From assembly GCA_031285625.1 (NCBI GenBank), contig JAITVV010000056.1:25125-57124 (forward strand): a stretch of 32,000 nucleotides of DNA, given 5' to 3'. Positions 25,533 through 26,864 of the stretch are shown piece after piece (position 1 is the first letter of the stretch; each line of letters starts with the position of its first letter). The position numbers were made by a program, and so were the translations under genes. This DNA comes from Prevotella sp. GTDB lineage: Bacteria > Bacteroidota > Bacteroidia > Bacteroidales > Dysgonomonadaceae. A model generated the notes under the pieces. It had not been told where the DNA came from, did no database searches, and saw only the letters and a program-made list of their open reading frames with translations.

Positions 25533-26864
25533 ATGATGGAAAAGTTATACCAAACAATAAAACAAAGGAGAAGACCTGAAGATATAGCCCAGATGATTCT
25601 GGATATTCAGGGAGATAACTTAAATGCTAAGGAAAGGAAGATTCTGGATAAAGCCGCTTCCGGTTCCATAAAAAAAAGCATCTGGGGATATAGTTCTATG
25701 GCTATGTACTTTGCAGAGCCAATAGGGGCAAAAAAGCAAATAGAAAAGGCAATCGAGCTATTTAAACTGGAAACAAACGAATCGTTATACGATCCCAATA
25801 ATATAGAAAGCATCCGTGCATTTATCTCTACAGTCTCCTCTGTATTAAAAAAAGAAGAAGGGGCAAACAATTTCTTAGCCGACAGGATGAATAAAGAGGC
25901 ACGCAAAGAATCCGGGCTCGATTTATCCAAAAGAGCATATAATAAAAGATGGCGTTTGTTGAAAAGATTGGAAAATAAACTATTGAAATTTATAAGAGAA
26001 AACCGCAAAGCTGAATTTCAGAAGATAGCTAAACATGGCATAATACATCGGTTAGATTATAATACTTTTGCATCTGATACTGATTCAGCCTGTTTTATTG
26101 CTTACTATACATCCAGATGTAACTTGCGGAGTGAGTTTACAATTTATGGACAACAAAGAGCCTTTGACGAAATCAGCGAAATGCTTTATAATCGTTGTAT
26201 TAATAACCAAAACACGAATTGGTGGGCTATATCCCAGGTTTATCCTGCCATCGATGTTTTGAAGAACCTGAGCGATGAACAAAAAGGGATTTTGCTAGGC
26301 GAATGGACTTCCATACTGAAAGATATATCCGCTTTGCTGGAAGAGGTATGGAACTCAAATCAGATTAACAGGAAATCGATGGTTGTCAGAAAAGGGAACG
26401 ATTCCACAACCTGGAACAATACAGCCGGAGCATGGAATAAATCGCGGGATAACTGGATGAACCTGATTTATGCAATGGGCATGGACGATATTCTGGATAC
26501 CATCTGCTTTGGGAAGGTATTGCGATTAATGGCTGGCGATGTAGTTTACTGGCATATGAGCACCGGAGGAAAATTAGACCCCAACACAGATGTATGGAAC
26601 AGTGTTCCTCTGCCTTGGGAAGTATTTGAAGGAAAAGCAGTTTGTAACCGAAAAATAATTGCGGATAGCTGCAAAAAGGCAGGACTAAACCCTGAAAAAT
26701 CGGGGTGGATAGCGCCACGTGAACATAGGGCCGTACCTTTCAGACCTACACCGGAACTGGTACATGGGGTTACAGTCAGCAATCCATTTCTTGCAGACAT
26801 ACTGAAAAAAGAAGGCTGGTTTTCAGGAAAGCCTGCAAAGAACAAAAAATGGTTTTGGAACTAA
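25533..26864 (+). CDS. Hypothetical 443-aa Trp-rich protein with no recognisable domain; its stop codon lies 3 nt before tRNA-like gene 1
   Basis: Long uninterrupted ORF with its own -7 box. It has no signal peptide or TM segment, and I recognise no catalytic motif. A basic segment is KRAYNKRWRLLKRLENKLLKFIRENRK. Confidence 0.7.
   Translation: MMEKLYQTIKQRRRPEDIAQMILDIQGDNLNAKERKILDKAASGSIKKSIWGYSSMAMYFAEPIGAKKQIEKAIELFKLETNESLYDPNNIESIRAFISTVSSVLKKEEGANNFLADRMNKEARKESGLDLSKRAYNKRWRLLKRLENKLLKFIRENRKAEFQKIAKHGIIHRLDYNTFASDTDSACFIAYYTSRCNLRSEFTIYGQQRAFDEISEMLYNRCINNQNTNWWAISQVYPAIDVLKNLSDEQKGILLGEWTSILKDISALLEEVWNSNQINRKSMVVRKGNDSTTWNNTAGAWNKSRDNWMNLIYAMGMDDILDTICFGKVLRLMAGDVVYWHMSTGGKLDPNTDVWNSVPLPWEVFEGKAVCNRKIIADSCKKAGLNPEKSGWIAPREHRAVPFRPTPELVHGVTVSNPFLADILKKEGWFSGKPAKNKKWFWN

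Follow-up and report, generated by a model that had tools for sequence, protein, structure and literature searches.

The stretch of DNA analysed here, in the following referred to as the window, comprises 32,000 nucleotides of contig JAITVV010000056.1 from a Prevotella sp. assembly of the Dysgonomonadaceae (GCA_031285625.1), and the subject of this work is a module within it that consists of one protein gene and two unusual transfer RNA (tRNA) genes. The protein gene (25533-26864, + strand) starts with ATG and encodes a 443-amino acid (aa) protein, termed P0001, which is predicted to be all-helical, is without known family and possesses a conserved core of approximately residues 120-436; the open reading frame (ORF) is real, as had been reported earlier from a reading of the DNA letters only (the sequence-only reading). 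A Bacteroidota-type -7 promoter box, TACCTTTG (25508-25515, + strand), is predicted from the sequence 17 nt before the ATG, and its form TAnnTTTG is what we take to be the Bacteroidota promoter consensus. The stop codon of the gene ends at 26864 and the first of the private tRNAs, tRNA 1 (26867-26941, + strand), begins 2-3 nt further on, followed by tRNA 2 (26962-27036, + strand). Scanning of the gap between the ORF and tRNA 1 identified neither a terminator-like site on the + strand nor a sigma-70-like promoter, and the sole element flagged by the terminator scan was the T arm of tRNA 1 together with its tail. There, directly 3' of tRNA 1, a T-run is found (26941-26948, + strand), and a similar T-run follows tRNA 2 (~27040-27045, + strand), both of which may represent a transcript end or a processing site. 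The architecture described by the sequence-only reading, i.e., a gene with its own -7 box that ends about 3 nt before the first tRNA-like gene (by ARAGORN, 26864 versus 26867), with no terminator or promoter in between and a T-run only after that gene, was hence recovered in each of its parts.

Both RNAs are class I cloverleaves with an anticodon loop of 8 nt, and neither of them has the canonical 7-nt loop with a 3-nt anticodon. ARAGORN assigned the four-nucleotide 'anticodon' cttt to tRNA 1 and ctgg to tRNA 2. Upon comparison with the loops of the host tRNA-Lys and tRNA-Pro, the loop of tRNA 1, CUCUUUAU, was typed as C + UUU (Lys-type) + A37 and that of tRNA 2, CUCUGGGU, as C + UGG (Pro-type) + G37. 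The Rfam model RF00005 matched positions 26868-26940 with 57.3 bits and positions 26963-27035 with 53.3 bits, the gathering threshold being 29. CCA is not encoded in the private tRNAs, which is uninformative, since the host tRNA genes of this genome are likewise without CCA.

The protein has a pI of 9.3 and contains 16 Trp (3.6%), its most basic segment (residues 131-160) resides within a predicted long helix (133-168) and a hydrophobic stretch of the membrane type is absent, so that its earlier description as a Trp-rich, predicted cytoplasmic protein with a single basic helix-like segment is borne out. The same holds for the absence of a recognisable domain, as searches with P0001 against Pfam, PHROGs, NCBIfam and PADLOC yielded zero matches; none of 88 family members matched Pfam or NCBIfam, and PDB sequence and profile searches gave no match. 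A word-index search revealed 939 relatives, the best 120 of which are 58-96% identical over 97-100% of the query length, and the named relatives among these 120 come mostly from many Bacteroidota genera. An exhaustive search identified at least 454 clusters at 50% identity (212 at E <= 1e-30), with family lengths of up to 581 aa and near-full-length matches of mostly 430-500 aa. No fused form of the protein was found, and the longer members are without Pfam domain. An alignment of 88 sequences identified N295, N302, K328 and W392 as invariant and many Arg, Asp, His, Cys and Trp residues as near-invariant, chiefly within the C-terminal half. The AlphaFold2 model of P0001 is all-helical and very confident (pLDDT 96.2, pTM 0.93), with a strand-loop-helix motif, G-N-D-S-S-T-W-N, located at the N-terminus of a long helix. 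Foldseek comparison of the whole model with the PDB gave no solved-structure match (best E 0.03, TM 0.11), VIA-align against 48,161 chains peaked at Z 6.8 on generic helical hairpins only, and for the conserved C-terminal domain (276-443), when folded alone, Foldseek found none and the best VIA Z was 3.3; the ESM Atlas gave no usable match, its own model being poor. The sole real structural relatives are two uncharacterised proteins from giant viruses of the Klosneuvirinae (E 1e-14 and 1e-12; TM 0.67), a group rich in translation genes. A 'DUF5636' label on one UniRef entry was followed up and led only to an unrelated T6SS paper. According to the predicted structure, P0001 is thus best described as a new all-helical fold, representing a family without known function. 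As neither Foldseek nor VIA-align revealed a confident match to an unrelated function, the idea put forward by the sequence-only reading, namely that the protein is a dedicated partner of the odd tRNAs, was not refuted from this side.

The genomic distribution of the two components bears on this idea directly. Within species-representative genomes, 37 of 40 loci carry one or two same-strand tRNA genes just downstream of the protein gene; of the other three loci, one lies at a contig end, one is a gene fragment and one has two tRNAs that have recombined into a single chimera. The set was enlarged with 18 IMG/VR and 80 metagenome contigs, whereby a locus was considered informative when the end of the gene was complete and no less than 250 nt of sequence followed it, and tRNAs were counted within 500 nt. 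On this basis, 1-4 same-strand tRNA genes were found downstream of the gene in 121 of 128 informative loci, which span Bacteroidota, Acidobacteriota, Streptomyces plasmids and jumbo-phage contigs; several of the remaining phage loci possess an odd tRNA just upstream of the gene instead. Measured from the codon that is aligned last in the protein match, the first tRNA begins at a median distance of 35 nt. The tRNAs also accompany the gene on plasmids of Streptomyces and Hymenobacter, where protein identity is 40-50%, and on IMG/VR contigs that are 46-436 kb long. Conversely, among 121 genomes of one genus the protein was identified in 2, and the anticodon/T-arm pattern of the family was found in exactly those 2, beside the gene, while among 401 genomes of the phylum the TGGACRYAGGTTCGA arm of the family was found only in the two protein holders, other loose arm matches being chance or a sequence read as host tRNA-Gln(CUG). 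Apart from synteny within a genus, the surroundings of the module contain no further conserved gene, and the sampled neighbours are unrelated housekeeping genes. Homologs that are widespread without adjacent tRNAs were therefore not seen, nor were the tRNA-like genes seen without the protein in either genome set, and the dedicated partnership postulated earlier, given the 121 of 128 paired loci and an arm confined to protein holders in the sampled genomes, is in our view established with very little doubt.

Several loci document how the module decays or varies. In one (L013, ~5320-5395) the two tRNAs have recombined into the chimera mentioned above with the protein gene intact, in another (L034:4001-5275) the protein gene carries 5 stops next to two intact tRNAs, in a third (L039:4001-4810) a truncated gene is joined to a partial tRNA, and in a fourth (G462:C1:2371131-2372480) the protein match is in two separate pieces and the tRNAs are intact. 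In the sister Dysgonomonas locus (L001) an insert of 220 nt (5330-5546) resides between the protein gene and tRNA 1, which is why tight spacing of gene and tRNA is not obligatory.

Next to their linkage, the private tRNAs share a distinct pattern of conservation. An alignment of 48 sequences supports the cloverleaf by compensatory changes in 17 of 21 pairs and documents that the tertiary-pair positions of a working tRNA are all retained. The RNAs are 72-77 nt in size; their acceptor stems vary freely between lineages and so does the discriminator base, and pairs 29-41, 30-40 and 31-39 of the anticodon stem (CGG/CCG) and the loop start CUC are essentially invariant, the latter being present in 175 of 207 unique partner tRNAs. 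Of these 207, 106 have a loop of 7 nt, 98 one of 8 nt and 3 one of 6 nt, and beyond the CUC start the loop (4-5 nucleotides) is hypervariable: in 442 tRNA pairs that have at most 2 differences in 60 body positions, the loops differ in 350, and a protein tree with 114 tips requires at least 70 changes of the loop state, versus approximately 96 with shuffled labels. The 8-nt loops read C + UUC (25), UUG (15), UUU (13), UGG (8) and others, and the 7-nt loops, all of which carry C34, read CUU (24), CUG (14), CUC (7), CGU (7), CGG (5) and CAU (4), with Lys, Glu and Gln types amounting to 98 of 159 typed loops. Of 55 loops with G36, 51 have G at position 37, and of 36 loops with C36, 32 have A there, a rule which is also followed by host tRNAs (e.g., Gln tt[ttg]gt and Pro tt[tgg]ga). 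This rule and the non-random loop types indicate that authentic anticodon loops are copied, and judged from the sequences, the variable loop part is a copy of a real anticodon with its positions 37/38, either with C34 (7-nt loops) or with an extra C before an anticodon that starts with U34 or G34 (8-nt loops). At 54 of 62 loci the two tRNAs are of different types, as exemplified by the Lys-type and Pro-type pair of the window.

A loop of 8 nt raises the question of recoding, i.e., that the tRNAs, once charged, act as +1 frameshift suppressors on NNN-G quadruplets or, in the case of CUA loops, as amber suppressors, with the protein serving to mature them, to charge them or to gain their acceptance by the ribosome. 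The layout CU-NNNN-RN, which is found in the 8-nt loops of 98 of the 207 partner tRNAs, is that of classical and engineered quadruplet decoders. Every four-base anticodon begins with C, by which G would be read as the fourth base; CUA variants are present at several loci, and the kept tertiary-pair positions are those of a working tRNA. However, G37 is retained after G36, and G37 in this position normally prevents +1 slippage. Moreover, one half of the partner tRNAs possess a 7-nt loop of the ordinary kind, the module is not accompanied by a target gene, and closely related members differ in anticodon type, a turnover that would be incompatible with a fixed recoding site. The protein gene, being an open frame in nearly all loci, does not need recoding itself; self-recoding was considered separately and rejected, because internal stops or frame breaks are absent from the gene except in decayed copies. 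As to precedents, frameshift suppressors with 8-nt loops are established (10.1101/2020.12.31.424971) and are also referred to through reference 40 of PMC3113583, but a natural 8-nt-loop tRNA was inferred to read plain triplets (PMC3113583). Considering both sides, recoding is rather unlikely to be what the module does.

The C that follows U33 is the most conserved feature of the loop, as reflected by the CUC start and by C34 in every 7-nt loop, and a second explanation takes it as the substrate of the protein. Following a lysidine-like logic, a C34-directed modification enzyme would alter this invariant C, so that, e.g., a tRNA with C34 reads NNA or the extra C of an 8-nt loop is neutralised, and the G-N-D-S-S-T-W-N motif together with the invariant K328 and the near-invariant R331 could hold a phosphate or nucleotide. 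P0001 has no similarity, though, to TilS, TiaS, TmcA or any nucleotide-binding fold, an all-helical protein would be an unusual frame for ATP-dependent base modification, and the hypervariable anticodon end is left unexplained, for which reasons we consider this enzyme activity unlikely. The position of the conserved element within the RNA argues against a non-ribosomal use, in which the protein would take the amino acid from the charged private tRNAs, as do Fem proteins, L/F-transferase, cyclodipeptide synthases and PEARL-type enzymes. For such transfer enzymes private non-proteinogenic tRNA isoacceptors exist, but here the conserved feature resides in the anticodon arm and not at the acceptor end, the discriminator varies, the fold is unrelated to known transferases and no biosynthetic or cell-wall genes are linked, rendering a role of this kind most improbable.

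Turning to distribution, the module is rare, being present in 1 of 400 other Bacteroidota genomes sampled and in 2 of 121 within one genus. At the same time the family reaches into Acidobacteriota, plasmids of Actinomycetota and contigs of jumbo-phage size, with proteins that are about 60% identical between classes. Horizontal transfer of the module fits this rare and patchy spread combined with the cross-class identity. In the window, comparison with a same-genus genome delimits a 2.7-kb insertion (25446-28156) which, besides the protein gene and the tRNA pair, includes a gene of the DUF2262 family (27152-28093); in that genome (G127) the O-methyltransferase and rbfA genes lie approximately 48 bp apart without a module between them. 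No inverted or direct repeats flank the window insertion. A second Dysgonomonas possesses the module at the same place with further insertions, among them an extra 1.6-kb insert with a 332-aa ORF between the O-methyltransferase gene and the module (L001:2331-3930) as compared to the window. The DUF2262 gene is also found beside the module in Dysgonomonas sp. 521 (L001:5857-6801), but as part of the system it was rejected, since it is absent from the module in all other genera. The family-3 O-methyltransferase, for which the sequence-only reading had drawn a circumstantial link to the tRNA-modifying TrmR, was dismissed as well: G127 has this gene beside rbfA and is without the module, in other genera it does not neighbour the module, and none of the flanking genes is common to different genera. 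Small genes that were labelled as putative orphan immunity-like genes in the earlier sequence-only reading reside at 24584-24814 and 12922-13200 of the window (Im9-like and DUF2185-like), and together with the DUF2262 gene they give a hint that this region collects conflict-related cargo.

A different insertion context was found in a Fluviicola metagenome-assembled genome, where the module (L002) is bounded by 127-nt direct repeats that are 97% identical (L002:3831-3957 and 5549-5675). The repeats have GTTAG-type ends and belong to an array (G520:C12:114318-134489; L162, L163) in which same-strand copies, at least 3 of them full and 4 partial, are spread across 18 kb of small ORFs and upstream of which a divergent tyrosine recombinase of the Xer/IntI family is encoded (TIGR02249, 179 bits versus a cut-off of 265). 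The Fluviicola module therefore resembles, by its sequence context, an integron-like cassette within an array, whose recombinase scores below the integron-integrase cut-offs. Flanking repeats were identified in only 3 of 109 loci; a strict scan for attC arms was too insensitive, as it missed even L002. Part of the repeat downstream of the L002 module is present at two loci of other taxa (L004, L007).

On viral contigs the gene often resides within tRNA arrays, and RlaP, ARPP or radical-SAM genes are found near some loci. Two radical-SAM genes flank the gene on one such contig (L049:3777-4805 and 6604-7341), an ARPP-1/ARPP-2 protein is encoded beside it on another (L056:3704-4693), and an RlaP RNA-repair nucleotidyltransferase gene lies beside it at a further locus (L057:870-1967), with relatives in L063, L065 and L148. 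The last of these is a locus on the Miltoncostaea oceani megaplasmid (NZ_CP064357.1, 388713-401987) that encodes a homolog with 28% identity, the neighbours of which are two peptidyl-tRNA hydrolase genes and genes for an RNA ligase, a nucleotidyltransferase and HNH endonucleases. A tblastn search of the INPHARED phage genomes gave no match to the protein.

A minimal, rare and horizontally moving two-part module, which in one genome is an integron-type cassette, invites the assumption of a toxin-antidote or abortive-infection system, given that integron cassettes are rich in toxin-antitoxin and defence genes. The protein would then be a tRNA-directed toxin (a nuclease or a blocker) and the tRNA-like RNAs its antidote, bait or specificity subunit, and the 1-4 tandem RNA genes beside the protein gene are loosely reminiscent of type III systems. 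The decayed loci speak against it: intact tRNAs accompany a broken gene in L034 and G462 and an intact gene accompanies a single chimeric tRNA in L013, so that neither part looks acutely toxic alone. In addition, no PADLOC match was obtained, the RNA differs from the repeat arrays that form the known antitoxins of type III in its tRNA shape and its downstream location, and a highly conserved protein with a variable RNA end is the opposite of a tight toxin-antitoxin fit. A toxin-antidote function is thus judged to be quite unlikely.

As a best guess, we suggest a role of the module in tRNA-targeting conflicts in which its tRNAs serve as substitutes or uncleavable decoys, a reading that is preferred tentatively and at less than even probability. 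The model assumes a self-contained, horizontally mobile two-part module, composed of the protein and 1-4 private tRNAs that are transcribed just behind it. From the conservation of the RNA we infer that the protein reads or acts on the CGG/CUC element: it would recognise, bind or chemically act on the unchanging part of the anticodon arm, i.e., pairs 29-41, 30-40 and 31-39 together with C32-U33-C34, and the rest of the loop would be free for re-aiming at whatever interacts with real anticodon loops. The tRNAs may in this way substitute for those hit by anticodon nucleases and similar toxins or may be uncleavable look-alikes of them, whereby the task of the protein would be to present the odd tRNAs or to render them usable. 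Among the tRNAs attacked by anticodon nucleases, those for Lys, Glu and Gln are the classic examples. Escape of phage tRNAs from anticodon nucleases through changes of the anticodon loop has been reported (PMC10264068, PMC11555353). It is the combination of the Lys/Glu/Gln excess, the arms-race tempo of loop change, the phage contexts with tRNA arrays and RNA-repair genes and this published loop escape which makes a conflict role the best guess. The rare and patchy spread and the integron-like cassette belong to the same context, and the Klosneuvirinae relatives provide a link to translation.

A number of observations weigh against this conflict role or limit it. Bacterial modules reside among ordinary housekeeping genes and not in defence islands, and no anticodon nuclease turned up near the loci, although no search was aimed at them. 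For binding to the 5' side of the arm, conservation of the RNA is the sole basis, because the protein is without a recognisable catalytic or RNA-binding fold. Among the loops borne by the same body are those of amino acids whose synthetases depend on features of the acceptor or discriminator as well; with this shared body and a varying discriminator efficient charging is doubtful, which favours decoys over decoders without settling the matter. Loops of 6 and 9 nt and variants in T-run length could reflect relaxed constraint, and beside the 28% identical Miltoncostaea homolog no tRNA was identified by ARAGORN or Rfam.

A more far-reaching reading was considered for the 8-nt loops, in which the extra C corresponds to an 'intron' of a single base. 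RNAs with such loops would then be reserve pro-tRNAs, which become 7-nt-loop tRNAs after excision behind U33 and resealing, the nucleotide being removed either by the partner protein or by a wobble-excising nuclease of the RloC type. Normal tRNAs would not survive RloC-type damage even after ligation, and the products here would be ordinary 7-nt-loop tRNA-Lys, Glu, Gln or Pro, hence a nuclease-proof and switchable backup pool. We regard this pro-tRNA reading as very unlikely; if true, it would constitute a new enzyme class acting on the anticodon loop.

As a side observation, the genome that harbours the window possesses a second cluster of a protein gene and odd tRNAs (contig C80:13921-14219, - strand, corresponding to L149:2422-2720, with the protein gene at L149:2728-4083, - strand). 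Its protein, P0272, has 451 aa, belongs to the short-chain-dehydrogenase family and is unrelated to P0001. Within approximately 8 nt after its gene begins a set of three unusual genes of tRNA shape, of which one has a 6-nt loop, one a class-I body and a Ser-type GCU anticodon and one an Asp-type GUC anticodon.

Taken together, the pairing of this protein family with its own tRNAs looks like an undescribed tRNA system that spreads horizontally among bacteria, plasmids and giant phages. That a protein family so rarely parts from its own tRNAs suggests that the anticodon arm is handled here in a manner not described before. Anticodon loops of 8 nt, which nearly half of these naturally occurring tRNAs possess, had to our knowledge been seen solely in isolated suppressor mutants and in a single lineage of mitochondria. 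Should the tRNAs be substitutes or decoys, they would add a new layer to the tRNA arms race among bacteria, phages and toxins, and should they be decoders, a natural, portable and re-aimable tRNA scaffold with its helper protein would be at hand, which would be of immediate interest to genetic-code engineering. Genome pipelines now label the protein as 'hypothetical' and the tRNAs as 'undetermined'.

In the full-text literature searched for 8-nt loops, quadruplet decoding and tRNA-like RNAs in Bacteroidota, no description of this protein-tRNA pair was found, and comparison with known systems reveals partial likenesses. Dedicated tRNA/enzyme pairs outside the standard code exist with PylRS/tRNAPyl and SelA/tRNASec, and the ProRSx/tRNAProX of Streptomyces is reportedly a dedicated synthetase/tRNA pair of this kind. 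In common with the module, a private tRNA and one protein are inherited as an accessory, horizontally moving unit; however, these systems comprise a recognisable synthetase or tRNA-dependent enzyme and a fixed anticodon, whereas here the fold is unmatched and the anticodon end is the fastest-changing part. For P0001 homology to synthetases was not seen, with no Pfam or NCBIfam match and an all-helical model without solved-structure match. The TilS/tRNA-Ile2 system, in which C34 is converted to lysidine, shares the cytidine right after U33 within a CUC loop start, but neither P0001 nor the 88 family members match a PP-loop ATPase in Pfam or NCBIfam, P0001 shows no similarity to TilS in sequence or fold, and the substrates here are a re-aimable family and not one tRNA. 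In ToxIN-like type III toxin-antitoxin systems short tandem repeats precede an endoribonuclease of the ToxN/AbiQ fold, in contrast to the 72-77-nt tRNAs located downstream here and to the absence of a PADLOC or Pfam match. As for features of HEPN proteins and of PrrC-RloC, no Pfam match was obtained, an R-x6-H string occurs a single time (R404..H411), within a beta hairpin and with an R that is not conserved, and a HEPN toxin appeared in the domain structure search with a Z of 2.5 only.

Ro60 (Rsr, TROVE) with its tRNA-like Y RNA (YrlA), which has been mentioned for jumbo phages (PMC7824862), also links a protein gene to a tRNA-shaped non-coding RNA in a setting of RNA repair or conflict, but a TROVE/vWA domain is absent here according to Pfam, and the partners are complete tRNAs as opposed to a tRNA-like module inside a larger Y RNA. 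The frameshift suppressors sufD, sufJ and SufB2 (10.1101/2020.12.31.424971) and the yeast mitochondrial tRNA-Thr (PMC3113583) resemble the private tRNAs in that their cloverleaf is complete and their anticodon loop is longer by one nucleotide. These are single mutant or lineage-specific genes, whereas in the tRNAs described here the extra nucleotide is always a C located 5' of an authentic anticodon/37/38 set, and the tRNAs share one body, number hundreds of loci and come with a protein partner. The phage escape tRNAs (PMC10264068; PMC11555353; PMC12409363) are likewise extra tRNAs on mobile DNA, including that of large phages, with differences concentrated in the anticodon loop, Lys-type and similar tRNAs being prominent and a turnover as expected for an arms race. 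Escape tRNAs, however, have 7-nt loops and no dedicated protein, while the module reported here combines tRNAs with about half 8-nt loops with a conserved partner of 430-500 aa and is carried by bacterial chromosomes and plasmids as well.

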